A stretch of 64,000 nucleotides of DNA from Escherichia phage BYEP02. The notes under the pieces were generated by a model. The model was not told where the DNA came from. It saw only the letters and a program-made list of their open reading frames with translations, and searched no databases. The stretch lies in sequence record OR757454.1; one strand, 5' to 3'. Below, piece by piece: positions 2,322-60,735 of this stretch (position 1 is its first letter; each line of letters opens with the position of its first letter). The translations under genes were made by a program, and so were the position numbers.

Positions 2322-2587
2322 TGTTTGTCGTTCACACTATTTATGAAAATGAAGGTAATACTACACGTGATTACGGTCACGTAAATCAATTTTTTAGATG
2401 CAATCCAGAATTCCGAGCTCAAAAAGACGAACGAATTTTTAAAAAATGTGTAGAGCAAGGTTTCATTTACGTCAAGCACTGGATGCAAGGAAATAAAGTT
2501 AGAACTACATATCATAAGTCTTTGCCTGAGCTTAATGATGAATTGATTTATAATAGAGCTGTAAACCAAACTCTGAAGGATGAATAA
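2321..2587 (+). CDS. hypothetical protein (88 aa)
   Basis: ORF immediately upstream of ligase. Confidence 0.5.
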   Translation: MFVVHTIYENEGNTTRDYGHVNQFFRCNPEFRAQKDERIFKKCVEQGFIYVKHWMQGNKVRTTYHKSLPELNDELIYNRAVNQTLKDE

Positions 2588-4050
2588 TGATTCTTAAAAT
2601 TCTGAATGAAATAGCATCTATTGGTTCAACTAAGCAGAAGCAAGCAATTCTTGAAAAGAATAAAGATAATGAATTGCTTAAACGAGTATATCGTCTGACT
2701 TATTCTCGTGGGTTGCAGTATTATATCAAGAAATGGCCTAAACCTGGTATTGCTACCCAGAGTTTTGGAATGCTGACCATTACCGATATGCTTGACTTCA
2801 TTGAATTCACGTTAGCTACTCGGAAATTGACTGGAAATGCTGCAATTGAGGAATTGACTGGATATATCACCGATGGTAAAAAGGATGATGTTGAAGTTTT
2901 GCGTCGAGTTATGATGCGAGACCTTGAATGCGGTGCTTCAGTATCTATTGCAAACAAAGTTTGGCCAGGTTTAATTCCTGAACAACCTCAAATGCTGGCA
3001 AGTTCTTATGATGAAAAAGGCATTAGTAAGAATATCAAGTTTCCAGCTTTTGCACAGTTAAAAGCAGATGGAGCTCGGTGTTTTGCTGAAGTCCGAGGTG
3101 ATGAATTAGATGATGTTCGTCTTTTATCACGAGCTGGTAATGAATATCTAGGATTAGATCTTCTTAAGGAAGAATTAATCAAAATGACTGCTGAAGCCCG
3201 CCAGATTCATCCAGAAGGTGTGTTAATTGATGGCGAATTGGTATACCATGAGCAAGTTAAAAAGGAACCAGAAGGACTAGATTTTCTTTTTGATGCTTAT
3301 CCTGAAATTAGTAAAGCTAAAGAATTCGCCGAAGTAGCGGAATCTCGTACTACTTCTAATGGAATCGCCAATAAATCCTTAAAAGGAACCATTTCTGAAA
3401 AAGAAGCTCAATGTATGAAGTTTCAGGTCTGGGATTATGTCCCGTTGGTAGAAATATACGGTCTTCCGGCGTTTCGTTTAAAATATGATGTACGTTTTTC
3501 TAAACTAGAACAAATGACATCAGGATATGATAAAGTAATTTTAATTGAAAACCAGGTAGTAAATAACCTAGATGAAGCTAAGGTAATTTATAAAAAGTAT
3601 ATTGACCAAGGTCTTGAAGGTATTATTCTCAAAAATATCGATGGATTATGGGAAAATGCTCGTTCAAAAAATCTCTATAAATTTAAAGAAGTAATTGATG
3701 TTGATTTAAAAATTGTAGGAATTTATCCTCACCGTAAAGACCCTACTAAAGCAGGTGGATTTATTCTTGAGTCAGAGTGTGGAAAAATTAAGGTAAATGC
3801 TGGTTCAGGCTTAAAAGATAAAGCCGGTGTAAAATCGCATGAACTTGACCGTACTCGCATTATGGAAAACCAAAATTATTATATTGGAAAAATTCTAGAG
3901 TGCGAATGCAATGGTTGGTTAAAATCTGATGGCCGCACTGATTACGTTAAATTATTTCTTCCGATTGCGATTCGTTTACGTGAAGATAAAACTAAAGCTA
4001 ATACGTTCGAAGATGTATTTGGCGATTTTCATGAGGTAACTGGTCTATGA
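2587..4050 (+). CDS. 30: ATP-dependent DNA ligase (487 aa)
   Basis: Translation recognised as T4 gp30; KADGAR adenylation motif (KxDG); length 487 aa. Confidence 0.93.
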   Translation: MILKILNEIASIGSTKQKQAILEKNKDNELLKRVYRLTYSRGLQYYIKKWPKPGIATQSFGMLTITDMLDFIEFTLATRKLTGNAAIEELTGYITDGKKDDVEVLRRVMMRDLECGASVSIANKVWPGLIPEQPQMLASSYDEKGISKNIKFPAFAQLKADGARCFAEVRGDELDDVRLLSRAGNEYLGLDLLKEELIKMTAEARQIHPEGVLIDGELVYHEQVKKEPEGLDFLFDAYPEISKAKEFAEVAESRTTSNGIANKSLKGTISEKEAQCMKFQVWDYVPLVEIYGLPAFRLKYDVRFSKLEQMTSGYDKVILIENQVVNNLDEAKVIYKKYIDQGLEGIILKNIDGLWENARSKNLYKFKEVIDVDLKIVGIYPHRKDPTKAGGFILESECGKIKVNAGSGLKDKAGVKSHELDRTRIMENQNYYIGKILECECNGWLKSDGRTDYVKLFLPIAIRLREDKTKANTFEDVFGDFHEVTGL

Positions 4051-4235
4051 AAGCTTACTTAGAAACAATTGTCGTGGCTCAAAAAGAAGGTGGAGATGTT
4101 TCTACTTCTGTATCACAAGTCATTCTCGAATTTGTAGATGCATACGCTTATAATAAATTTACAGAAACATTTGATGCTTATGAAAAAGGTCCAAAGTTTG
4201 AAATATATCGTACTCTCTTACCTATAGATTATTAA
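4047..4235 (+). CDS. hypothetical protein (62 aa)
   Basis: ORF between ligase and alt; followed by AAGGCCTTCGGGCCTT hairpin. Confidence 0.45.
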   Translation: MKAYLETIVVAQKEGGDVSTSVSQVILEFVDAYAYNKFTETFDAYEKGPKFEIYRTLLPIDY

Positions 4236-4250
4236 AGGCCTTCGGGCCTT
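4235..4250 (+). terminator. stem-loop AAGGCCTTCGGGCCTT with downstream T-rich tract
   Basis: Between ORF 4047-4235 and alt. Confidence 0.45.
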
Positions 4251-4256
4251 TAATTT

Positions 4257-4264
4257 TATAAATA
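4257..4264 (+). promoter_or_regulatory. T4-type late promoter core TATAAATA (alt)
   Basis: Exact TATAAATA 21 nt upstream of alt ATG. Confidence 0.6.
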
Positions 4265-4284: not shown

Positions 4285-6612
4285 ATGATGGAACTAATTA
4301 CAGAATTATTTGACGAAGATACTACTCTTCCGATTACAAACTTAAATCCAAAGAAGAAAATACCACAAATTTTTTCAGTTCATGTTGATGACGCAATTGA
4401 ACAACCAGGCTTTCGTTTATGTACCTATACATCTGGAGGTGATACTAATCGTGATTTAAAGATGGGCGATAAAATGATGCACATTGTTCCTTTTACATTA
4501 ACTGCTAAAGGTTCAATTGCTAAATTGAAAGGTCTTGGTCCAAGCCCAATTAATTATATCAATTCAGTTTTTACTGTTGCAATGCAAACAATGCGTCAGT
4601 ATAAAATTGATGCCTGCATGCTTCGTATTCTTAAGTCTAAAACCGCTGGTCAAGCTCGACAAATTCAAGTTATTGCTGATAGACTTATCCGTAGTCGTTC
4701 AGGTGGCAGATACGTCCTTCTTAAGGAACTCTGGGATTATGATAAAAAGTATGCATATATTCTTATACATCGCAAAAATGTATCACTAGAAGACATTCCA
4801 GGAGTTCCGGAAATTAGTACCGAGCTCTTTACTAAAGTTGAATCGAAGGTCGGTGATGTTTATATCAATAAAGATACTGGAGCTCAAGTAACTAAAAATG
4901 AGGCAATTGCAGCATCTATTGCAAGGTCGGTGATGTTTATATCAATAAAGATACTGGAGCTCAAGTAACTAAAAATGAGGCAATTGCAGCATCTATTGCA
5001 CAAGAAAACGATAAACGTTCTGACCAAGCTGTAATCGTTAAAGTTAAAATTTCCCGTAGAGCAATTGCACAAAGTCAATCATTAGAGTCTTCTAGATTTG
5101 AAAGTGAATTATTCCAGAAGTATGAATCTACAGCAGCTAATTTTAATAAACCAGCTACTGCACCTTTAATTCCCGAAGCAGAAGAAATGAAAATTGGAAT
5201 TAATTCATTAGCTTCTAAAACTAAGGCAGCAAAAATCATTGCCGAAGGAACTGCAGATGAACTTCATTATGACTATAAATTCTTTTCAAAAAGTGAGGTT
5301 AATGAAGTTTCTGAAAAAATTAAAGATGTAATTCTTAATGCGATTAAAAATGAACCAACCACTTCAATAAAATGTTTAGAGAAATACGCAGCAGCTGTTA
5401 ATCAATTCTTTGAAGAATATAAAGATAATTGGCTTGATAAACATAATAAAACACGTAAAGGACAGCCAGATGAAGTCTGGGAAGAAATAACTAAAAATTC
5501 CTGGAACGCGACAAAAACTAAATTCCTCAAAAGAATGATTTATAGTTTCTCTGGAATTGGTGCAGGTCCAATGATTGATATTACTATTGCCCGTGATGGT
5601 TCTAAATATACTCCATCACAAAAGCGCGGCATTAGAGAGTATTGCGGTTCAGGATATACTGACATCAATAATCTTCTTTTAGGACGCTACAATCCAGAAC
5701 GATATGATGTAATGAGTGAAAAAGAAATTGAATCTGCTATAAATAACTTAGATTCAGCTTTTGAAAATGGTGACCGCATACCGGAAGGCATCACAGTTTA
5801 TCGTGCTCAAAGCATGACTGCTCCTATATACGAAGCATTAGTTAAAAATAAAGTATTCTATTTCAGAAATTTTGTATCTACTTCTTTAACTCCTATCATT
5901 TTTGGACGTTTTGGATAGTTAAAAATAAAGTATTCTATTTCAGAAATTTTGTATCTACTTCTTTAACTCCTATCATTTTTGGACGTTTTGGAATTACACA
6001 TGCTGGTATTGGTCTTTTAGAACCAGAAGCTCGCAATGAATTAACAGTTGATAAAAATGAAGAAGGAATAACTATTAATCCAAACGAAATAAGAGCGTAT
6101 AAAGAAAATCCTGAATACGTTAAAGTTCAAATAGGATGGGCAATTGATGGAGCAATCCAAACGAAATAAGAGCGTATAAAGAAAATCCTGAATACGTTAA
6201 AGTTCAAATAGGATGGGCAATTGATGGAGCTCATAAAGTTAATGTTGTATATCCAGGAAGTCTCGGAATAGCAACAGAAGCTGAAGTTATTCTACCGCGT
6301 GGATTGATGGTCAAAGTTAATAAAATAACTGATGCTTCTAATAATGACGGAACAACATCTAATAATACAAAACTCATTCAAGCTGAAGTTATGACCACGG
6401 AAGAGCTCACCGAATCGGTAATCTATGATGGAGACCATTTAATGGAAACTGGTGAATTGGTTGCAATGACAGGTGATATTGAAATAGAAGACAGAGTTGA
6501 CTTTGCATCATTTGTTTCATCAAATGTTAAACAGAAAGTAGAATCATCTCTTGGAATTATTGCGTCTTGCATAGATATTGCAAACATGCCTTACAAGTTC
6601 GTTCAAGGATAA
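4285..6612 (+). CDS. alt: ADP-ribosyltransferase Alt, interrupted by three 77-nt duplications
   Basis: N-terminus MELITELFDEDTTLPITNLNPKK recognised as T4 Alt; TATAAATA late promoter 21 nt upstream; total length fits about 682 aa plus three 77-nt inserts. Confidence 0.8.
4846..4999. repeat. 77-nt tandem duplication
   Basis: Period 77 verified; in alt. Confidence 0.9.
5841..5994. repeat. 77-nt tandem duplication
   Basis: Period 77 verified; in alt. Confidence 0.9.
6075..6228. repeat. 77-nt tandem duplication
   Basis: Period 77 verified; in alt. Confidence 0.85.
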
Positions 6613-6615
6613 ATC

Positions 6616-7001
6616 ATGGAACTTATTACATAATTATTTGACGGCGCTTCGGCGCCGGTTGTTAACTTAAATCCTAAGCATAAAATACCACAAATTTTTG
6701 CTATTCAAGCCGGCGAAGAAAGCGTGCTTCCTGGATTTAGATTTTGTACATACACCTCTGGCGGTGATACAGATAAAACGTTAAACCAGGCGACAAAATG
6801 ATGCATATCGTAATGATAGGTGTTAATGAGAAACTATCATTAGTTAAGCTTAAAAACTTGGGTGGAAATCCAATTGGTGTCATTAATGCTGTTTTTGATA
6901 CTGCTCTTCAAACAATGAAACAGTATAAAATCGACGCATGCCTATTACGCGTACTAAAAAGTTCAAAATGTAGTTTACAAGTCCCTCGTGTTGTGTTATA
7001 G
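6616..7001 (+). pseudogene. decayed paralogue of the alt N-terminal region
   Basis: Starts MELIT then TAA at codon 6; GGCGCTTCGGCGCC hairpin replaces codons; frameshift near codon 55; downstream ORF 6798-7001 (MMHIV...QYKIDACLLRVLKS) parallels Alt residues about 63-125. Confidence 0.5.
6643..6656 (+). terminator. stem-loop GGCGCTTCGGCGCC after alt
   Basis: GC stem with UUCG loop 31 nt after alt stop. Confidence 0.45.
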
Positions 7002-7033
7002 TAGTCTTACTGACATAACATGAGGAACACAAA

Positions 7034-7324
7034 ATGAAATCTTCTTTACGCTTTTTAGGTCAAGAACTTGTAGTTGAAGGCGTTATTCCTGCTGATAATG
7101 CTTTTAATGAAGCAGTTTATGATGAATTTATCAAAATTTTCGGAACAGATAAAAAGTTTGGAATTTTTCCTTCTGAAAATTTTTCAAAGCCAGAACAGAC
7201 TGAAAGTATTTTTCAGGGTGTAGTAACAGGTAAATTTGAGTCAGAAGCTCCGGTAAAAATTGAAGTTTATATTGAAGACAGTTTAGTTGCTTCAGTTGCT
7301 GCTTTCATTTCATTCCGTAAATAA
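7034..7324 (+). CDS. hypothetical protein (96 aa)
   Basis: ORF with GAGGAA RBS; ends at bidirectional terminator. Confidence 0.5.
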   Translation: MKSSLRFLGQELVVEGVIPADNAFNEAVYDEFIKIFGTDKKFGIFPSENFSKPEQTESIFQGVVTGKFESEAPVKIEVYIEDSLVASVAAFISFRK

Positions 7325-7330
7325 AAATAT

Positions 7331-7348
7331 GGGGACCGAAAGGTCCCC
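7331..7348. terminator. bidirectional hairpin GGGGACCGAAAGGTCCCC between convergent genes
   Basis: Between + ORF end 7324 and gp54 stop 7397; A/T-rich flanks both sides. Confidence 0.6.
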
Positions 7349-7396
7349 GTTGTTATATTGCTCCTAATATTTTACTCTGCGAATTGACAATCCCTG

Positions 7397-8320
7397 TCAT
7401 AGTATACTAATATTTGAAATGCTTCCTGAGGTTCCTCCTAGTCTACTAAGTCGTGAAAGCGAATTAGATAGTCCAGTAACACCTCCACTATTTCCGAGAA
7501 CGCTTTGAATACCATTTATAGCAGCAGATTCAAGCCATTCAAGCGCAGCTTGCCTATCAACTGCTCCAGCCTGCATCACTCTGTACGCAAAAGTAACATC
7601 AAATGTAGTTATTTGGTTATCTCCATCATATGATAACTCAGGAGCGCTCACTGATATTGGAATGCATCCGGTGAACATCACAGCAGTATGAGGTAATCCA
7701 TTGCGAGAATGAAGATTAACCTGAATGTCTGCCTCGACATCTTGTGGCAAAGCGCGTAATCCAGTTACTGGGTCTTGAACGGAGTTAACCCAGTCTTGCA
7801 TTGCACGATAGTTACAAGCTTCTGAATCCATTCTAAATGAAATAACCAAAGGGTCTAATTCTCTCCCAGTTATACGAATATTAGGAGAATTATAGTTCCA
7901 GTCAGTTTCATAGGATAATCTATTCTCTGGCATTTTTACAGAATATATCATCAATCCAGATGAGTTATATGCCATGTTAAAGAAGTCAATTAAATATGTA
8001 CCAACTGTAAATGAGCCCAATAAACTTTGAACTGTACGTTGACTCATGGCACCAATAAGATATTTACTAACCCCTGATTTTCTTATCAGTTTTTGTGTGC
8101 CAGCTGTAATTAGCGTGGTAATTCCCTGATTAATATCACCTTGAGTTAATCCTAACCAATTTGAATTTAGGCCCAAGTTATTATAAGAAAAGTTGCTAAT
8201 TGAACTTATCAACGAAGAGCTTTTAGTTGATGGAGTTGTTGCAAAAACGCAGCTAAACATATTATTACGTTGGAAATCTGCGTTTATTGCTTGATTATTA
8301 AATTCCTCTAAAGAATACAT
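7397..8320 (-). CDS. 54: baseplate tail-tube initiator
   Basis: Position after gp48 in conserved order 29-48-54; 307-aa ORF; start overlaps gp48 stop. Confidence 0.8.
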   Translation of the reverse strand: MYSLEEFNNQAINADFQRNNMFSCVFATTPSTKSSSLISSISNFSYNNLGLNSNWLGLTQGDINQGITTLITAGTQKLIRKSGVSKYLIGAMSQRTVQSLLGSFTVGTYLIDFFNMAYNSSGLMIYSVKMPENRLSYETDWNYNSPNIRITGRELDPLVISFRMDSEACNYRAMQDWVNSVQDPVTGLRALPQDVEADIQVNLHSRNGLPHTAVMFTGCIPISVSAPELSYDGDNQITTFDVTFAYRVMQAGAVDRQAALEWLESAAINGIQSVLGNSGGVTGLSNSLSRLSRLGGTSGSISNISIL

Positions 8321-9422: not shown

Positions 9423-11272
9423 TTAATTAACTCCAGTCGCATCAAATACACCAGGAGCAGTTGTGCTTGTGACAGGTGTCATATTATGAACGACAGTATT
9501 TTTCTTAATAACATTATTAGTATTATTGATTGAAGGAGATGCTTGCTGAACAGGAGCTTGCTGTGCTTTGTTCTTTTCAATAACCTGGACCTGTTTCGCT
9601 TCTGGCGATTTAGCAGAAGTTTCAGGTTTGGCATTAGGCTGATTTTTCTTGAGCTCTTGATAAGTAGCATCAATTTTAGAAAATCTAGCAGCAAGTTCTT
9701 TTTTAACTGCCGGTGAATTGTTTAAATCCGGGTCATCCATCCGTTTTTTAAGGTCTTCATAGGCAGATTCAACAGATTTAACCGTTGAGTCTTTACTCAT
9801 ATCAGCTGAATCAGCATATTTTTCAAAACGAATCATCGCGGCACGTGCTTCATTAGCCTTCATTAAAGCATTTTTTCTTTCTTCAGGTGAAAGCTGCTTT
9901 AATTTTTCTTCTTCTGCTGCACGTTCTTCGTCGGTAGTTAGTGCTTCTTTATTATCAACACCGCGAATCCAATTAGATGCACGAGTTTTCCAATTAGCAA
10001 TTTTATCTAATCCTTTTGCTATCGGACCAAGGTCTCCGTTCATTCGTTTATCTTGATAATTTGCAACTTTTTCTTGGTCTTCTTTATTGAGAGATGCTCC
10101 AGTAGAATTTTGGAAATTTTCCAATGCTCTTCCTTCTACTTCATCAGCAGTATCCTTCATACCAGGAATGACTCGAAGAATTGCTGCAGATAATTTAGCC
10201 ATACCTAATTGAATAAGCTCTCCTAAATTAAAAAGAACACTTCCAAGTCCTTCTATGATAGCTGTTGTCAATCCACCCCAATCTCCCGCTTCCCAAAGTT
10301 GTTTAATTTTATCAATAGAATCAAAGATGCTCTGTAATAAAGGACCCCACCACCCCAATCTCCCGCTTCCCAAAGTTGTTTAATTTTATCAATAGAATCA
10401 AAGATGCTCTGTAATAAAGGACCCCATGTTCCGGTTTCGCTAGAGAATTTAGTAAAATCAGTACTATATAAATCCCAGGCTTTTGAAAATTTATCTGACC
10501 AGTATTTAAAATGAACCATCAACAGGTCTATTCCAACAACAACAGCCAATATCATTGCAGTCATTTTAGCAGCTTCAATAGCAGCACTAACGGTATACTT
10601 AAATAGCATGCTTGATATTTTATCAGTAATTGAAATAGATTTCTTAAATCCAAAATCAACTGTCTTTGTTAATTTATCTAAAGCTTGAGATAATTTTAAG
10701 TTAAATGCTTCTTTTTTCTGTTTTTCTTCTGGTGATTCTTGTTTGGGTTCAACTGGTTGAGGGGTAGGGAAAAAATCAGCGTCAGGATCATTATTAACTG
10801 CTTCGGGAGCTGGTAATAAAGGACCCACAGATTCGGCAGTATCATCCTCAACGACTTTAACAGGAATAGCGCTTTCAACCGTGGCTAAACTAGTTCCCGT
10901 CTGTTGAATTCCAGCTGTCTGAATTTTTTGCTCTAGTAAACTTGTTAATTTATCTAATTTGCTTCCGAGTGATTCACCGATTTCTTTATTAATATTGTTG
11001 CCAATTTCGACAGTTTCAGCAATTAACTCAGAACCAGCAGTAGTATCACTCACTGCGCTTTCTACGTTATCAATTGCTCCAATTATTTCATTCGATTTTT
11101 CTTCGACAGTTTGAGCTATTAATTCAGAAGCAGCTTGAGCATCATCCAATTTCGTAGAAATGTCATTAAGCCCAGATAAAGTATTAGAAGCGGATTTAGC
11201 CGCTTCCTGTGTTGGTTTATTATCTGAAATAACTTTTCTACGCATCGTTTGCATTTCTTGTGGCTTTTTCAT
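9423..11272 (-). CDS. 29: tail tape-measure / baseplate hub protein, one 77-nt duplication inside
   Basis: Length 1850 nt = 590 aa + stop + 77; gene order 28-29-48. Confidence 0.8.
10273..10426. repeat. 77-nt tandem duplication
   Basis: Period 77 verified; in gene 29. Confidence 0.9.
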
Positions 11273-15303: not shown

Positions 15304-15527
15304 TGAGATATAGCATTGATGATGCTTTTAATTATGAAGAAGAATTTGAAACGGAAATTCAATTCTTAATGAAAAAGCATAATCTTAAGCGTCAGGATAT
15401 TCGTATCCTGGCCGATCACCCGTGTGGTGAAGATGTCCTTTATATTAAAGGAAAATTTGCCGGATATCTTGATGAATATTTTTATTCTAAAGATATGGGC
15501 ATTGATATGCATATGAGAGTTGTATAA
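15303..15527 (+). CDS. hypothetical protein (74 aa), uvsY-downstream
   Basis: ORF overlapping uvsY stop; its 3' end is duplicated by a 77-nt repeat. Confidence 0.5.
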   Translation: MRYSIDDAFNYEEEFETEIQFLMKKHNLKRQDIRILADHPCGEDVLYIKGKFAGYLDEYFYSKDMGIDMHMRVV

Positions 15528-16174: not shown

Positions 16175-16190
16175 AAGGGCCGAAGCCCTT
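16175..16190 (-). terminator. hairpin AAGGGCCGAAGCCCTT after uvsW
   Basis: GC stem with GAAG loop immediately after uvsW stop. Confidence 0.5.
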
Positions 16191-18671: not shown

Positions 18672-20167
18672 ATGACTTTTACAGTTGATATAACTCCTAA
18701 AACACCTACTGGAGTTATAGATGAGACTAAGCAGTTTACTGCTACGCCCAGTGGTCAAACTGGAGATGGACCTATTACCTATGCTTGGACTGTTGATGAT
18801 GCACCGCAGGAAGAAACGTCTGCAACTTTTAGTTATGTACTAAAAGGTCCTGCTGGACAAAAGACTATTAAGGTAGTTGCAACAAATCCAGTTCCTGATT
18901 CTGAAGCTGAAACAGCTGAAATTAGTACAACTATCACAGTTCAAAATAAGACACAAACAACTACTTTAGCTGTAACTCCTGGTAGCCCTGATGCTGGAGT
19001 GATTGGAACTCCAATTGAATTTACCGCTGCCTTAGCTTCACAGCCATCAGGTGCAAACGCTACATATCAATGGTACGTTGACGGTTCTCCTGTGGGCGAA
19101 GCAACTGGCACTACATTCAATTACACTCCTGACGCAAGCGGAGTTAAAACAATTAAGTGTGTAGCTCAAGTAACCGCGACAGATTATGATGCAAAGGAAG
19201 TTACTTCTAATGAAGTGTCACTGACTGTTAATAAGAAAACACAGACAACTACGTTAGCCGTAACTCCTGCTAATCCTCCAGCAGGAGTTATTGGAACCCC
19301 AGTTCAATTTACTGCTACCTTGGCTTCACAGCCACCAGGAGCGTCTGCTACGTATCAGTGGTATGTTGACGGTTCTCTGGTCGATGGAGAAACTACTACT
19401 ACATTTAACTATACTCCTACCACAGTTGGAGCTAAAACAGTTAAGTGTGTAGCGCAAGTAACTGCAGAAAATTACAATGAAAAGGAAGTTACTTCTAATG
19501 AAGTATCATTGACTGTTAATAAGAAAACAATGAATCCACGGGTTACATTGACTCCTCCTTCTATTAACGTTCAGCAAGATGCTTCGGCTACATTTACTGC
19601 TAATGTTACGGATGCTCCAGAAGAAGCACAAATCGAATATTCATGGAAGAAAGATTCTTCTCCAGTAGAAGGGTCAACTAATGTATACACTGTTGATACA
19701 TCATCTATTGGAAGTCAAACTATTGAAGTTACTGCAACTATTACTGCAACTGATTACGATAGCAAAACTATTACAGCAGAAGGTCAAGTTCAGGTAACTG
19801 ATAAAGTTGCTCCGGAACCAGAAGGTGAATTACCTTATGTTCATCCTCTTCCACATCGCACTTCAGCTTATATCTTGATAAAGTTGCTCCAGAACCAGAA
19901 GGTGAATTGCCTTATGTTCATCCTCTTCCACATCGCACTTCAGCTTACATCTGGTGCGGTTGGTGGGTTATGGATGAAATCCAAAAAATGACCGAAGAAG
20001 GTAAAGATTGGAAAACTGAAGATCCAGATAGTAAGTACTACTTGCATCGTTACACTCTTCAGAAGATGATGAAAGACTATCCAGAAGTTGATGTCCAAGA
20101 ATCGCGTAATGGATACATCATTCATAAAACTGCTTTAGAAACTGGTATCATCTATACCTATCCATAA
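18672..20167 (+). CDS. hoc: outer capsid protein Hoc with four Ig-like domains, one 77-nt duplication inside
   Basis: Ig-like repeats (TFTVDITPKTP...; QTTTLAVTP...) and capsid-binding C-terminus ...GIIYTYP; about 472 aa after removing the duplicate. Confidence 0.85.
18949..19542 (+). repeat. diverged in-frame 297-nt tandem repeat inside hoc (two Ig-like domains)
   Basis: Two 99-codon units NKKTQTTTLAVTP...EVTSNEVSLTVNKK, roughly 80-85% identical. Confidence 0.8.
19800..19953. repeat. 77-nt tandem duplication
   Basis: Period 77 verified; 3 mismatches, all synonymous; in hoc. Confidence 0.9.
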
Positions 20168-20172
20168 TCATA

Positions 20173-20192
20173 AGGGGCTTCGGCCCCTTTCT
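20173..20192 (+). terminator. intrinsic terminator AGGGGCTTCGGCCCCT + TTCTTCATTTT after hoc
   Basis: GC hairpin with UUCG loop and T-rich tail. Confidence 0.65.
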
Positions 20193-20746: not shown

Positions 20747-21828
20747 ATGTTTAAAAAGTATAGCAGTCTTGAAAATCATTACAATTCTAAATTCATTGAA
20801 AAACTTTATAGTTTAGGATTGACTGGCGGCGAATGGGTAGCTCGTGAAAAGATTCATGGTACAAATTTCTCGTTGATTATTGAGCGCGATAAAGCAACTT
20901 GTGCTAAACGTACTGGACCGATTCTTCCTGCTGAAGATTTCTTTGGGTATTGATTATTGAGCGTGATAAAGTAACTTGCGCTAAACGTACTGGACCAATT
21001 CTTCCTGCTGAAGATTTCTTCGGTTATGAAATTATTTTAAAGAATTACGAAGATTCTATTAAAGCTGTCCAAGAAATTATGGAAACTTCAGCTGTTGTGA
21101 CTTATCAAGTTTTTGGCGAATTCGCTGGACCTGGCATTCAGAAGAATGTCGATTATGGCGATAAAGATTTTTATGTATTTGACATTATTGTTACTACCGA
21201 AAGTGGTGATGTAACTTATGTTGATGATTACATGATGGAATCGTTTTGTAATTCATTTGGGTTTAAAATCGCTCCACTTTTGGGTCGTGGTAAATTTGAA
21301 GATCTTATTAAACTTCCAAATGATTTGGATTCTGTTGTTCCGTCTTATAATTTTACCGTAGATAATGCAGGTTTAATTGACGCTAACAAATGTGTTTGGA
21401 AAGCTGAAGCCAAAGGCGAAGTATTTACCGCTGAAGGATATGTATTGAAACCTTGTTATCCTTCTTGGCTGCCTAATCGCAATCGTGTAGCCATCAAATG
21501 CAAGAATTCTAAATTTAGTGAAAAGAAAAAGTCTGATAAGCCTATTAAAGCTAAAGTTGAACTGTCAGAAGCTGATAACAAATTGGTGGGGATTTTAGCT
21601 TGTTACGTTACACTAAACCGAGTAAATAACGTTATTTCTAAAATTGGCGAAATTGGTCCAAAAGATTTTGGAAAGGTGATGGGACTAACTGTTCAAGATA
21701 TTTTGGAAGAAACTTCTCGTGAAGGTATTACTCTAACTCAAGCGGATAATCCTTCTTTGATTAAAAAGGAATTAGTTAAAATGGTACAAGATGTACTTCG
21801 TCCGGCTTGGATTGAATTGGTAAGTTAA
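20747..21828 (+). CDS. rnlB: RNA ligase 2, one 77-nt duplication inside
   Basis: EKIHGTNFS adenylation-lysine motif; 334 aa + 77 nt. Confidence 0.85.
20874..21027. repeat. 77-nt tandem duplication
   Basis: Period 77 verified; 6 mismatches, 5 synonymous; in rnlB. Confidence 0.9.
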
Positions 21829-23253: not shown

Positions 23254-23269
23254 CCATAAAAACAACTAA

Positions 23270-23287
23270 AGGGACCCGAAGGTCCCT
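23270..23287 (-). terminator. hairpin AGGGACCCGAAGGTCCCT after gene 23
   Basis: GC hairpin between gp23 stop and the gene 24 late promoter. Confidence 0.6.
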
Positions 23288-23301
23288 TAAATCGTCAAAG
23301 A

Positions 23302-34195: not shown

Positions 34196-34984
34196 TGTTG
34201 GTCTATTTACATTGCTAGTGAAAGTTTGTTTTACTGTTCCATCCCAGTCTTCTGGGTTAATATCTCGAGGAACAACTTCGTTATCGACAGATTCAAAAAC
34301 ACCTTCGCCATCAGGCAAATCTCTTGTATTGGCGTGAAAATCTGTATAAGTAGTACGAATTAATCCTTCTGCATCATCTACCGGAGGATACATCCATCCA
34401 TTTACTTCAAATGTTAGTGACCATTCAATTCTACGACGAGATAAATTATCTCCATCTATAGATTCGTCTATAGCAGCAGACATCAGTACAATTTTAATAT
34501 CCCTTTTAAATGGAATATCATTTCCAAACTGTTCGTACATAGTTGTATTAAAATGAGGTTGAAAATATGGAAGAATCTGTTCAACTATTTGAAACATATC
34601 ATCTTCGTAGCGAGTAAAGATACTCAATTCATAAATCATTTTAATAGGAGATGGATTATACTGCGATACTACAGAAGTTGCACCTTTTTGCAGTAAATTC
34701 TGATTTAAAATGTTTGTTTTAAATGGAGCATTATAGCTAAAATCAACTAAATGTAAATTTATACGAGGTAGAATGGTTTCAACTTTAGCTACATCTTCTT
34801 GTGAATTTATTGATGTCCATTTATTCAATTTCATCATAAAGTGTTCCTTTGATGCATACGTAATAGGAACACGTATAAACTTATCACCAGATTCTAACTG
34901 ACGTTTGATTTGGATATTTGAAAACAAATCGCCCATCAAGGTAGCATATCGTCTAAAAGACGAATTATAAAAATAACCAAACAT
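34166..34984 (-). CDS. 15: tail sheath stabiliser / tail terminator gp15 (272 aa)
   Basis: 272 aa; gene order 13-14-15-16. Confidence 0.85.
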
Positions 34985-35025: not shown

Positions 35026-36958
<1,933 letters not shown>

Positions 36959-51180: not shown

Positions 51181-53293
51181 TTAGCCAATGTCAATCCTCG
51201 ATCCATCAATTGTGTATTGACCAGATGAAATAGAACTCATAGATGCCATTTTTTCTGTCCAATCACCACCAACGTCCCAATCAACTGTCCCAGCAACTTT
51301 CCAAGAAAGATTTCCATTTACTGTATTAGTTTGATTTCCTTCCCACCAACGTCCCAATCAACTGTCCCAGCAACTTTCCAAGAAAGATTTCCATTTACTG
51401 TATTAGTTTGATTACCTTCAACTAAAGTGGTAGCATCTCCTTTAACTGTAATGTCAGCATTACCTTCAACTACAATAGTAACATTACCTTTAACTAGGAT
51501 AGTTCCATTACCTTCAACCGTCTTAGTTTCATCGCCTCTAACAAATATCGTATTGCTTCCATCTATTTGGTGAAGACGATTATCCATGTTGTAATAAATT
51601 TCTGATCCACCGACGTTAGTCTTTTTATCGCCGGCTACCAAAAAATTACCATCAGCATTTGTTATATCATACAAATTATCAACAGTTTTTCTTGTTCTTC
51701 TTCCTGACCGGCTACCAAAAAATTACCATCAGCATTGGTTATATCATACAAATTATCAACAGTTTTTCTTGTTCTTCTTCCTGACGGTGATACTTCCTCA
51801 TACGTTCCAGTCGGATGAACTAATCTGTATCGTTCTTGCCCAGGGGTATCATCAAATTCCTGAATATGCCCACTTTCAGTTTCCATTGTATGCACATAAG
51901 GATATTCGCCTTTATATGAAGAAACTGGTTCTTTGAATAAAATTCTCGAGTCATTTGGAATAGGAGGGTCAGCCGGGTCAGAAGACTTTGCTACAGTAGC
52001 AGCCATTGCTGACAAAGACCTAGCCGGTGTTTTCACTTCAATACCGTATGATTCTCAGAAGATTTAGCTACAGTCGCAGCCATTGCCGATAAAGACCTAG
52101 CTGGAGTTTTCACTTCAACACCATATGATTCCAAATTCCCCGTAAGAATAATCATGGTAACACGGGATGCACGGCCTTTTGTTTGTTGATACCACAATGA
52201 ATCACGACCGGCTTTATATGCTTTTTCCCAATCTCCTGCTAACATAGCAGTTAACATTGTGTTAAATTTAGCTACACCGCCAACACCCATCTGAAATGCC
52301 ATATTTTCTAATGCCATTTGGCGAGAACGGTTGACAGCTTGCCAGACTGGTCCTACTTTAGAATGTGATTTAATGTCGCGTTGCATATCAGCCAAATCAC
52401 GTTCAAATAGAGTCGTCGCTTCTTCCATTGTAATAGAACCTGGATTTCCGGTAATTTCACGACCAACTTGTTTTGATAAAACTTTATTAATTTGGGCCAT
52501 ATCACGAACTGGCTGCTTCATGATAAGATGACCAATACCAATTGTCGGATATCCTTCAGTATCCCAATAAACTTTTAGTCTTAATCCTTCATCACGGCGA
52601 AGCATTTCAGCCATTGACATATTTGGATTATCATCAGTTGGAATCTCTGATAGTGGTCTATCATCGGGTCACGGCGAAGCATTTCAGCCATTGACATATT
52701 TGGATTATCATCAGTTGGAATCTCTGATAGTGGTCTATCATCGGGATTTATTGCGGTGTCTAAGTTACTATCTTGAATAACATTAGAAGAGGAATCATAT
52801 CCTACATCACCACCTTGGTTTAATACGTTCGTATCATTTCCTAAACGTCTAGGATATTGCCCAGTTGGGTCAGAAAATCCTTCAAGTCTATTCGGTTTTT
52901 CGCGAACTATTCCACCATACGTGCCAAGGACAATTCCGTTAGTTTTCCATTTGTCTAAAAAATGACCATAAACTCTAGTTCCTTCTACCGGTCCAGTAAC
53001 AGAACCTCCAATTCCAGACATTGCTGCAGAAGTTATAGGTTGAATAACTGACATCCATGGTAATTTTTCAGTTGGAATACCCATTACATCACCTTGCGCT
53101 CTTTGTGGTGGATGCAGACCAACCACACGAACACGAACACGACCTAATTTTAATGGGTCCATTCTATCTTCAACAACACCAACAAACCAATTGAACCAAC
53201 CACACGAACACGAACACGACCTAATTTTAATGGGTCCATTCTATCTTCAACAACACCAACAAACCAGTTGAGGTTATTACTTATCATTTCCAT
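51181..53293 (-). CDS. 5: baseplate hub + tail lysozyme gp5, five 77-nt duplications inside
   Basis: MEMISNNLNWFVGVVED start; lysozyme domain MSMAEMLRRDEGLRLKVYWDTEGYPTIGIGHL; VxGxxx beta-helix repeats; C-terminus SGQYTIDGSRIDIG; 575 aa + 5 x 77. Confidence 0.9.
51266..51419. repeat. 77-nt tandem duplication
   Basis: Adjacent copies; gene 5 beta-helix region. Confidence 0.85.
51631..51784. repeat. 77-nt tandem duplication
   Basis: Adjacent copies; in gene 5. Confidence 0.85.
51980..52133. repeat. 77-nt tandem duplication
   Basis: Adjacent copies with many third-position differences; in gene 5. Confidence 0.85.
52591..52744. repeat. 77-nt tandem duplication
   Basis: Adjacent copies; gene 5 lysozyme-domain start. 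Confidence 0.85.
53118..53271. repeat. 77-nt tandem duplication
   Basis: Adjacent copies; gene 5 N-terminal region. Confidence 0.85.
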
Positions 53294-60249: not shown

Positions 60250-60323
<74 letters not shown>

Positions 60324-60477
60324 ATTTAATTTACTCCGTGTAGCTCAGTTTGGTAGAGCGTCTGCTTTGGGAGCAGAATGTCGCAGGTTCAAATCCTGCA
60401 ATTTAATTTACTCCGTGTAGCTCAGTTTGGTAGAGCGCCTGATTTGGGATCAGGAGGTCCAAGGTTCAAATCCTTGT
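60324..60477. repeat. 77-nt tandem duplication (diverged copies) over tRNA-Pro
   Basis: Period 77; 10 mismatches in the 3' 40 nt, arranged as compensatory pairs in the anticodon and T stems. Confidence 0.85.
60334..60400 (+). pseudogene. truncated tRNA-Pro-like copy lacking the 3' acceptor strand
   Basis: Copy 1 of a 77-nt duplication; 5' 37 nt identical to tRNA-Pro, anticodon and T stems differ by compensatory changes. Confidence 0.6.
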
Positions 60478-60484
60478 ATGGAGA
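60411..60484 (+). tRNA. tRNA-Pro (anticodon TGG)
   Basis: Acceptor CTCCGTG/TATGGAG (G-U pairs); anticodon loop TTTGGGA; T-arm GGTTCAAATCC. Confidence 0.75.
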
Positions 60485-60486
60485 CT

Positions 60487-60576
60487 GGAGGCGTGGCAGA
60501 GTGGTTTAATGCACCGGTCTTGAAAACCGGCAGTCGCTCCGGCGACTCATAGGTTCAAATCCTATCGCCTCCGCCA
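60487..60576 (+). tRNA. tRNA-Ser (anticodon TGA), type II
   Basis: Acceptor GGAGGCG/CGCCTCC; anticodon loop CTTGAAA; long variable arm; CCA encoded. Confidence 0.8.
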
Positions 60577-60685
60577 GTTTTGCTGATTTAGCTCAGTAGG
60601 TAGAGCACAGTCGCTCCGGCGACTCATAGGTTCAAATCCTATCGCCTCCGCCAGTTTTTGCTGATTTAGCTCAGTAGGTAGAGCA
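60532..60685. repeat. 77-nt tandem duplication over the tRNA-Ser/tRNA-Thr junction
   Basis: Period 77; one T indel between copies; makes a chimeric pseudo-tRNA. Confidence 0.9.
60583..60653 (+). pseudogene. chimeric tRNA fragment (Thr 5' part fused to Ser 3' half)
   Basis: Created by the 77-nt duplication at 60532-60685; no matching acceptor stem. Confidence 0.6.
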
Positions 60686-60735
60686 CCTCACTTGTAATGA
60701 GGACGTCGGCGGTTCGATTCCGTCAATCAGCACCA
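60660..60735 (+). tRNA. tRNA-Thr (anticodon TGT)
   Basis: Acceptor GCTGATT/AATCAGC; anticodon loop CTTGTAA; T-arm GGTTCGATTCC; CCA encoded. Confidence 0.8.

Follow-up and report, generated by a model that had tools for sequence, protein, structure and literature searches.

A probable remnant of a full-length tandem alt paralogue at the alt.-1/alt.-2 locus of a T4-like phage

The window analysed here, a 64,000-nucleotide stretch of DNA from Escherichia phage BYEP02, is a segment of a Tequatrovirus (T4-like) genome. Its positions 6500-7400 match Escherichia phage BYEP01 without a difference (100% identity) and many other T4 relatives at 98-99%. On the plus strand, the DNA ligase gene 30 (2587-4050) is followed by alt.1 (4047-4235), alt (4285-6612, with its stop codon at 6610-6612), the interval under study (6616-7001) and alt.-3 (7034-7324), beyond which genes 54 and 48 are encoded on the opposite strand. 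T4 has the same gene order, and its annotation, like that of phage e11/2, divides the studied interval between alt.-1, a gene of 61 codons, and alt.-2, one of 67. The alt.-3 gene, which carries this name in the T4 annotation and encodes a DUF5498 protein (Pfam PF17602, E = 1.4e-64), is intact and forms the downstream boundary of the locus.

Several transcription signals surround the interval. The promoter scan placed an early-type promoter for alt.-3 on the plus strand at 6973-7002, with GTTTAC at -35, a 17-nt spacer and the extended -10 element TGtTATAGT (10/12 matches with TG); the annotation of phage Lutter has a promoter at this position as well. GTTTAC is the T4 early -35 consensus (PMC1524935), and a promoter of this kind is consistent with the early expression of alt.-3 in T4, where both its RNA and its detected protein are classed as early (PMC9697503 Table S2). 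The stop codon of alt.-2 (6999-7001) sits within the -10 hexamer, so that the promoter also encodes the last nine codons of alt.-2 and its stop. The first canonical terminator downstream of alt is a bidirectional intrinsic terminator between alt.-3 and gene 54 (7329-7350), which was called on both strands by the scan and is annotated in e11/2, G50, Lutter and SP1. Upstream, the gap between alt.1 and alt contains a C(UUCG)G hairpin with a 10-bp stem and a T-rich tail (4231-4254), where e11/2 and G50 annotate a terminator, immediately followed by TATAAATA at 4257-4264. The latter is presumably the T4 late-promoter motif, and a late-promoter-like element at this position fits the late appearance of the Alt protein.

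The assembly of the window shows a systematic irregularity. Between positions 1274 and 62982, sequence is duplicated in tandem at about 55 sites, each with two exact copies and a period of exactly 77 nt, for example at 4846-5000, 5839-5992, 6077-6230 and 10273-10426. Such a pattern is typical of pieces joined without trimming a k = 77 overlap, and not of biology. Three of these duplications break alt into the apparent ORFs 4285-4968, 5187-5918 and 6304-6612, and after their removal a stop-free alt of 697 codons was obtained, the product of which was identical to G50 Alt at 692 of 697 residues. Other genes in the window will show false frameshifts for the same reason. At 697 codons, the de-duplicated alt is of the variant found in G50, N2 and Lutter, whereas BYEP01 (L001, 1065-3113) carries the 682-codon T4-type gene; the window is therefore not simply BYEP01, and alt is mosaic among close relatives. 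Imperfect 77-nt duplications, 88-92% identical, were also present at 20873-21027, 36024-36178, 51978-52131 and 60322-60686. They could represent joins at strain-variant bubbles, and the last of them, which consists of tRNA-like units, could instead reflect genuine similarity of neighbouring tRNA genes of about 77 nt. A genuine-looking tandem repeat with a 288-nt (96-codon) period, 2.0 copies and 80% identity occurs at 18951-19529 and probably corresponds to two copies of a repeated domain in a protein-coding gene.

The interval itself begins 3 nt past the alt stop codon with ATG GAA CTT ATT ACA TAA (6616-6633). Both the MELIT restart shared with Alt and the nonsense codon at codon 6 (6631-6633, plus strand), which had been pointed out in a sequence-only reading of this DNA, can be read directly in the sequence. 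In the alignment, codon 6 is GAA in T4, e11/2 and all intact paralogues described below. The prohead protease gp21 cuts Alt after Glu-6 in the motif ITE-6 (PMC5694885), and the codon turned into TAA is the one for this cleavage residue; with MELIT followed by a stop codon and no Glu codon, the cleavage motif of the N-terminal propeptide, which serves head packaging, is lost. The Alt-like frame runs on to about position 6790, where 1 nt is absent. The missing nucleotide belongs to a run of four adenines at 6775-6778 (plus strand), which is A5 in the intact paralogues, and the resulting frameshift separates alt.-1 from alt.-2.

Past the frameshift, which the sequence-only reading had also noticed, lies the intact alt.-2 ORF of 67 codons on the plus strand (6798-7001), starting with ATG and listed both among the open reading frames of the window and as alt.-2 in T4 and e11/2. 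The alt.-1 frame closes with a TGA (6799-6801) that shares nucleotides with this ATG in an ATGA arrangement. When the stop codon and the frameshift were conceptually repaired, the product aligned to Alt residues 1-117 with 62% identity over 117 residues (E = 7e-49), and the similarity to Alt proposed earlier thus holds on proper alignment. The more specific assignment of the 67-codon ORF to Alt residues of about 63-125 holds in part: its first 55 codons correspond to residues 63-117, whereas the last 12 (SKCSLQVPRVVL) are read-through and unrelated. A Pfam search with the 67-residue alt.-2 product and with a 128-residue ORF from phage N2 returned no family. The catalytic domain of the ADP-ribosyltransferase (PF03496, ADPrib_exo_Tox) is absent from the interval, and alt.-2, beginning at residue 62, wholly lacks the ITE-6 motif.

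Full-length counterparts were found in relatives. When the repaired 128-residue product was used as a tblastn query, its residues 1-116 matched without a break, at about 96% identity, within an Alt-like ADP-ribosyltransferase gene of many Tequatroviruses, there being two such genes per genome. A 685-codon gene, here called alt2, occupies the slot between alt and alt.-3 in G50, AR1, teqskov, RB7, UFV13, Sf21, KK4 and two IMG/VR contigs; the IMG/VR sampling was anchored on alt.-3 and comprised 5 loci, too few for population counts. Residues 414-620 of alt2 form the ADPrib_exo_Tox domain (PF03496), and its full-length product shares 40% identity with that of alt. Two Alt paralogues have also been described in another Tequatrovirus (2026; PMC13600099). 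The window interval was 95.3% identical in nucleotide sequence to positions 4945-5348 of both the G50 and the AR1 locus (L004 and L006), where the 685-codon gene begins. Codons 1-116 of alt2 thus correspond to window positions 6616-6962 on the plus strand and, in T4 terms, to alt.-1 together with codons 1-55 of alt.-2 (alt2 codons 62-116). An intact full-length frame in relatives had been named beforehand as an observation that would speak against decay; such frames were found, yet they confirm the pseudogene reading, with the interval as the stump of a full-length tandem paralogue that is intact in most Tequatroviruses.

The point at which the stump leaves the intact gene was resolved to a short repeat. 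Window positions 6560-6962 aligned to the first 348 nt of alt2 (95.3%) and positions 6954-7400 to its last 20 nt and the downstream region (95.5%). The 9 nt common to both blocks form a single copy of CTAAAAAGT at 6954-6962 on the plus strand. In the AR1 locus, copies of CTAAAAAGT occur at 5340-5348 and 7039-7047, 1,699 nt apart; the left copy was perfect in 6/9 intact genes and the right copy in all nine. The junction was identical in 13/13 stump genomes examined. Since 1,699 is not divisible by three, the reading frame shifts at the junction. In G50 and AR1, alt2 ends with ...AAG TTC AAA ATG TAG, and the same letters are present in the window in another frame. The old stop codon (TAG, 6971-6973, plus strand) is now out of frame and is read through by alt.-2, which stops at the TAG at 6999-7001 and gains 12 unrelated residues on the way. 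This 12-codon tail is accidental read-through of the old alt2 3' end and the alt.-3 promoter.

The same evidence bears on a rival origin, in which only the first part of alt was duplicated in a primary event and no full-length paralogue was shortened by deletion. The T4 RefSeq note, which states that the pair 'together reflect an old duplication of the first part of gene alt, into which a stop codon...', speaks for such an origin, as does the listing of T4 alt.-1 and alt.-2 as paralogous duplications of alt by Nolan et al. 2006 (PMC1524935). Against it, the stump DNA is about 95% identical to the 5' end of alt2 and only about 70% identical to alt, the sequence past the junction is the exact 3' end of alt2 with its stop codon, and the junction is a single copy of a 9-nt repeat that intact genomes have on both sides of the lost 1,699 nt. 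The real duplication of alt was, judging from the 40% identity between alt and alt2, full-length and much older. A primary partial duplication is accordingly regarded as highly improbable.

The frequencies of the two states were estimated by counting the GenBank phage records that matched diagnostic BLAST queries. With a query spanning the junction, 471 records were matched; 90 of them (the window, T4 and 88 others) contained the junction, and the remaining 381 (~80%) matched only from the repeat onward, in the 3' end of a full-length alt-like gene. Intact alt2 is therefore the majority state in Tequatroviruses and the T4-type stump the minority, with about one fifth of sequenced Tequatroviruses, T4 included, bearing the deletion. 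An exact 57-mer with TAA at codon 6 was found in 44 of 489 phage records, the window included, which amounts to about half of the deletion-bearing genomes.

These counts also bear on the suspicion that faulty sequencing or assembly produced the TAA and the frameshift, which arises naturally in a window with about 55 artefactual tandem duplications, three of them breaking alt. No such duplication touches 6616-7001, the 44 GenBank and RefSeq records with the TAA 57-mer stem from many laboratories, and the A4 frameshift is shared by T4 and 10 other stump genomes examined. An error is hardly credible as the source of these lesions.

The lesions occur in different combinations. The run is A5 in all 9 intact genes as well as in the stumps of N2 and AV120, and A4 in the other 11 stump genomes, including the window. 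Phage N2 carries the deletion alone, with A5, GAA at codon 6 and a single 128-codon ORF (UTQ79515). T4, e11/2, VEc20, SP1 and Pu-Krd-SF3 combine the deletion with the A5-to-A4 frameshift, and the window, BYEP01, Lutter and slur14 have the deletion, the frameshift and the TAA. In the window alt.-1 is consequently truncated to 5 codons and is not the open 61-codon ORF of T4; alt.-1 is unannotated in BYEP01, Lutter and slur14. In AV120 (OR352950; L015, 1195-1581), the TAA occurs together with a run that is still A5. Decay in a strictly linear series was considered and rejected, as all four combinations of TAA and frameshift exist; recombination or recurrent homopolymer slippage is needed to account for them. 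The stump haplotype of AV120 resembles the RB7/UFV13-type intact genes and the other stumps share the Sf21-type, which suggests that sequence around the deletion has recombined or that the 9-nt repeats gave rise to a second, independent deletion. In the AV120 record, a 92-codon ORF at the stump is named 'putative RNA polymerase-ADP-ribosyltransferase'.

Polymorphism was compared between 13 stump and 9 intact sequences, a small sample in which a mutation was judged private to the stumps against only 9 of the ~381 intact genes. Codons 1-116 of the intact genes contained 34 synonymous and 2 nonsynonymous polymorphic sites. The stump-private mutations comprised 3 synonymous, 9 missense, 1 nonsense and 1 frameshift mutation. 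The ratio of nonsynonymous to synonymous changes was 10:3 in the stumps versus 2:34 in the intact genes (Fisher p = 2e-6), and the former is near the 3.6:1 expected under neutrality. Within the alt.-2 part, the synonymous to nonsynonymous counts were 23:1 in the intact genes versus 0:3 among stump-private changes (Fisher p = 0.0014). The differences are significant, and they show the stump to evolve neutrally and intact alt2 to be under strong constraint.

The second possibility raised by the sequence-only reading, that of a small protein expressed separately, can be weighed against these data. In the form considered here, alt.-2, together with alt.-1 where the latter is intact, would be a functional small protein from the N-terminal part of Alt that might, for example, modulate the packaging or activity of Alt. 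The alt.-2 ORF with its ATG is open in 13/13 stump genomes, T4 and many relatives have it annotated as a gene, RNA of the region is made in T4, and the T4 ATGA overlap with alt.-1 could couple translation of the two. The open frame was rejected as a sign of function, as a stop is created by only 4.8% of single substitutions and the divergence among the sequences is low. The selection data speak against such a protein, with all three stump-private changes in alt.-2 altering amino acids, and so does the composition of the ORF, which starts in the middle of a conserved region, carries neither the N-terminal targeting and cleavage motif nor the catalytic domain, and ends in a 12-residue tail of old stop codon and promoter read-through. 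Its ATG is preceded by a weak Shine-Dalgarno match only (AGG), and in the window and other carriers of the TAA allele translation of alt.-2 could no longer be coupled to that of alt.-1 by way of the ATGA overlap.

Expression data from T4 point in the same direction. In a time-resolved transcriptome and proteome, the RNAs of alt.-1 and alt.-2 were classed as 'middle', the same class as alt, and the Alt.-1 and Alt.-2 proteins were undetected by LC-MS/MS (class NA), which is weak evidence as small proteins are easily missed by MS (PMC9697503 Table S2). A region transcribed by read-through from alt but yielding no stable protein would fit these data, which are suggestive only. Because no canonical terminator precedes 7329-7350, the stump is probably still transcribed in the window by read-through from alt, and it would yield no functional protein. 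Overall, a functional small protein is considered very unlikely.

A G+C-rich hairpin of the C(UUCG)G type, CGGCGC-TTCG-GCGCCG, with a 6-bp stem and a TTCG loop, was identified by folding and by the hairpin scan at 6642-6657 on the plus strand. It had been proposed to replace the codons of the Alt-like frame and to double as the alt terminator, and of these proposals the first was not borne out and the second found no support. The hairpin is in frame and encodes G-A-S-A-P (codons 10-14), and it is unchanged inside the intact 685-codon alt2. Being located within this intact, selected gene in relatives, the hairpin must there be crossed by transcription, and it is thus not a canonical terminator. 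The terminator scan made no call at 6642-6657, where the hairpin is followed by no U-run (tail GGUUGUUAAC / GGTTGTTAAC), and the terminators annotated in e11/2, G50, Lutter and SP1 stand after alt.1 and alt.-3, with none at the hairpin. An Rfam scan of 6400-7450 (E <= 1) gave two sub-threshold chance matches, both outside the stump.

Hairpins with a TTCG loop are nevertheless enriched in the window. With stems of at least 6 bp, 8 were counted in 64 kb versus 0.6 expected from shuffles in which stems of at least 5 bp were counted; they lie at 239-254, 4231-4254, 6642-6657, 15393-15410, 16175-16190 (minus strand), 20172-20189, 23269-23288 (minus strand) and 34456-34473. Of the eight, six are of the G+C-rich C(UUCG)G type; the majority of the eight lie between genes, and a T-rich tail follows two of them. 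The hairpin in the stump thus belongs to a genome-wide class, among which it is odd in lying within coding sequence in relatives with intact alt2. C(UUCG)G hairpins in T4 mRNAs were reportedly described as unusually stable structures by Tuerk et al. in 1988.

A functional role of the hairpin, as terminator or 3'-end stabiliser of the alt mRNA for which the stump has been kept, would accord with this enrichment and reported stability and with a perfect 6-bp G+C stem and UUCG loop only 30 nt after the alt stop codon in an AT-rich genome. The counterevidence, besides the missing U-run, scan call and annotation, is that about 80% of relatives have the hairpin in frame within a gene subject to purifying selection, that the folding of its 101-nt context is ordinary (z = -1.2), and that RNA of T4 alt.-1 and alt.-2 is detected in the same class as alt. 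Its invariance in 22/22 sequences, including the 9 intact alt2 genes, covers five codons only and is statistically uninformative. A functional hairpin is thus an unlikely explanation for the stump.

Given the anatomy, the junction, the frequencies of the states and the relaxed selection observed, the interval 6616-7001 is very probably a pseudogene, the 5' remnant of a tandem 685-codon alt2 gene for an Alt-like ADP-ribosyltransferase. Relative to an intact orthologue at the same locus, it bears three disabling lesions (the loss of 1,699 nt, the 1-nt frameshift and the nonsense codon), and its constraint is relaxed. In the proposed course of decay, slippage or illegitimate recombination between the CTAAAAAGT repeats would have deleted 1,699 nt in the lineage of T4 and the window, removing codons 117-679 with the whole catalytic domain. 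Codon 116 would thereby have been fused out of frame to the last few alt2 codons, with reading entering the alt.-3 promoter, and the immediate product may have been an N2-like state with a single 128-codon ORF. Contraction of A5 to A4 would then have divided the stump between the 61-codon alt.-1 and the 67-codon alt.-2, the T4 state, and a change of GAA to TAA at codon 6 would have cut alt.-1 to five codons in the window and about half of the deletion-bearing genomes. The deletion could also be recurrent rather than of single origin, as the repeats permit recurrence and the flanking haplotypes are mosaic. That the loss of alt2 was adaptive, for example as an escape from a host defence sensing Alt2, with the stump hairpin serving as a stabiliser of alt mRNA or alt.-2 as a small regulator, is given only a slim chance.

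The reading of the interval as a pseudogene is already on record through the T4 annotation and Nolan et al. 2006. With the full-length gene at hand, the T4 wording of a duplication of the first part of alt is imprecise, in that the locus is the relic of a full-length paralogue and T4 represents the derived state. Annotation pipelines treat the alt.-1/alt.-2 locus inconsistently. The 67-codon alt.-2 is labelled 'ADP-ribosyltransferase' in VEc20 (vec20_193), vB_Eco_F26, vB_Eco_F25, SG1, JEP6 and SYGD1; such labels are a carry-over from the N-terminal similarity to Alt, as the product has no catalytic domain. The series from intact gene through deletion and frameshift to nonsense codon offers a teaching example of phage gene decay.

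Among known systems, the closest is the alt.-1/alt.-2 pair of T4 (NC_000866; T4p199 and T4p198), which shares with the window the slot, the junction, the A4 frameshift with AAAATGATG and the ATGA overlap. The alt.-2 proteins of the two phages are identical at 67/67 residues. The window differs from T4 in having TAA for GAA at codon 6, an allele found in 43 other records, as well as N53D and a few silent differences. In comparison with T4 Alt, the packaged RNA polymerase ADP-ribosyltransferase, the repaired stump retains similarity that includes the MELITE start, but it is a paralogue and not a copy, and it lacks the catalytic domain and, in the window, the Glu-6 codon. The full-length alt2 of relatives (AR1_201, G50 gp212, Sf21 gp189, RB7 'alt.-2' and 6phi13) shows the same locus in its intact state. 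Codons 1-116 are shared at about 95% DNA identity, hairpin included, and the last codons and the downstream promoter are identical, whereas codons 117-679 with the PF03496 domain are missing from the window and a frameshift and a nonsense codon have been added. The naming of these genes reflects the relationship: the RB7 record calls its full-length alt2 'alt.-2', and the Sf21 record remarks of the full-length gene that its 'N-terminus is similar to phage T4 Alt.-1'. The 128-codon ORF of phage N2 has the same junction and read-through tail as the window but keeps A5 and GAA, so that its stump is unbroken and represents the least decayed of the deletion-bearing states.
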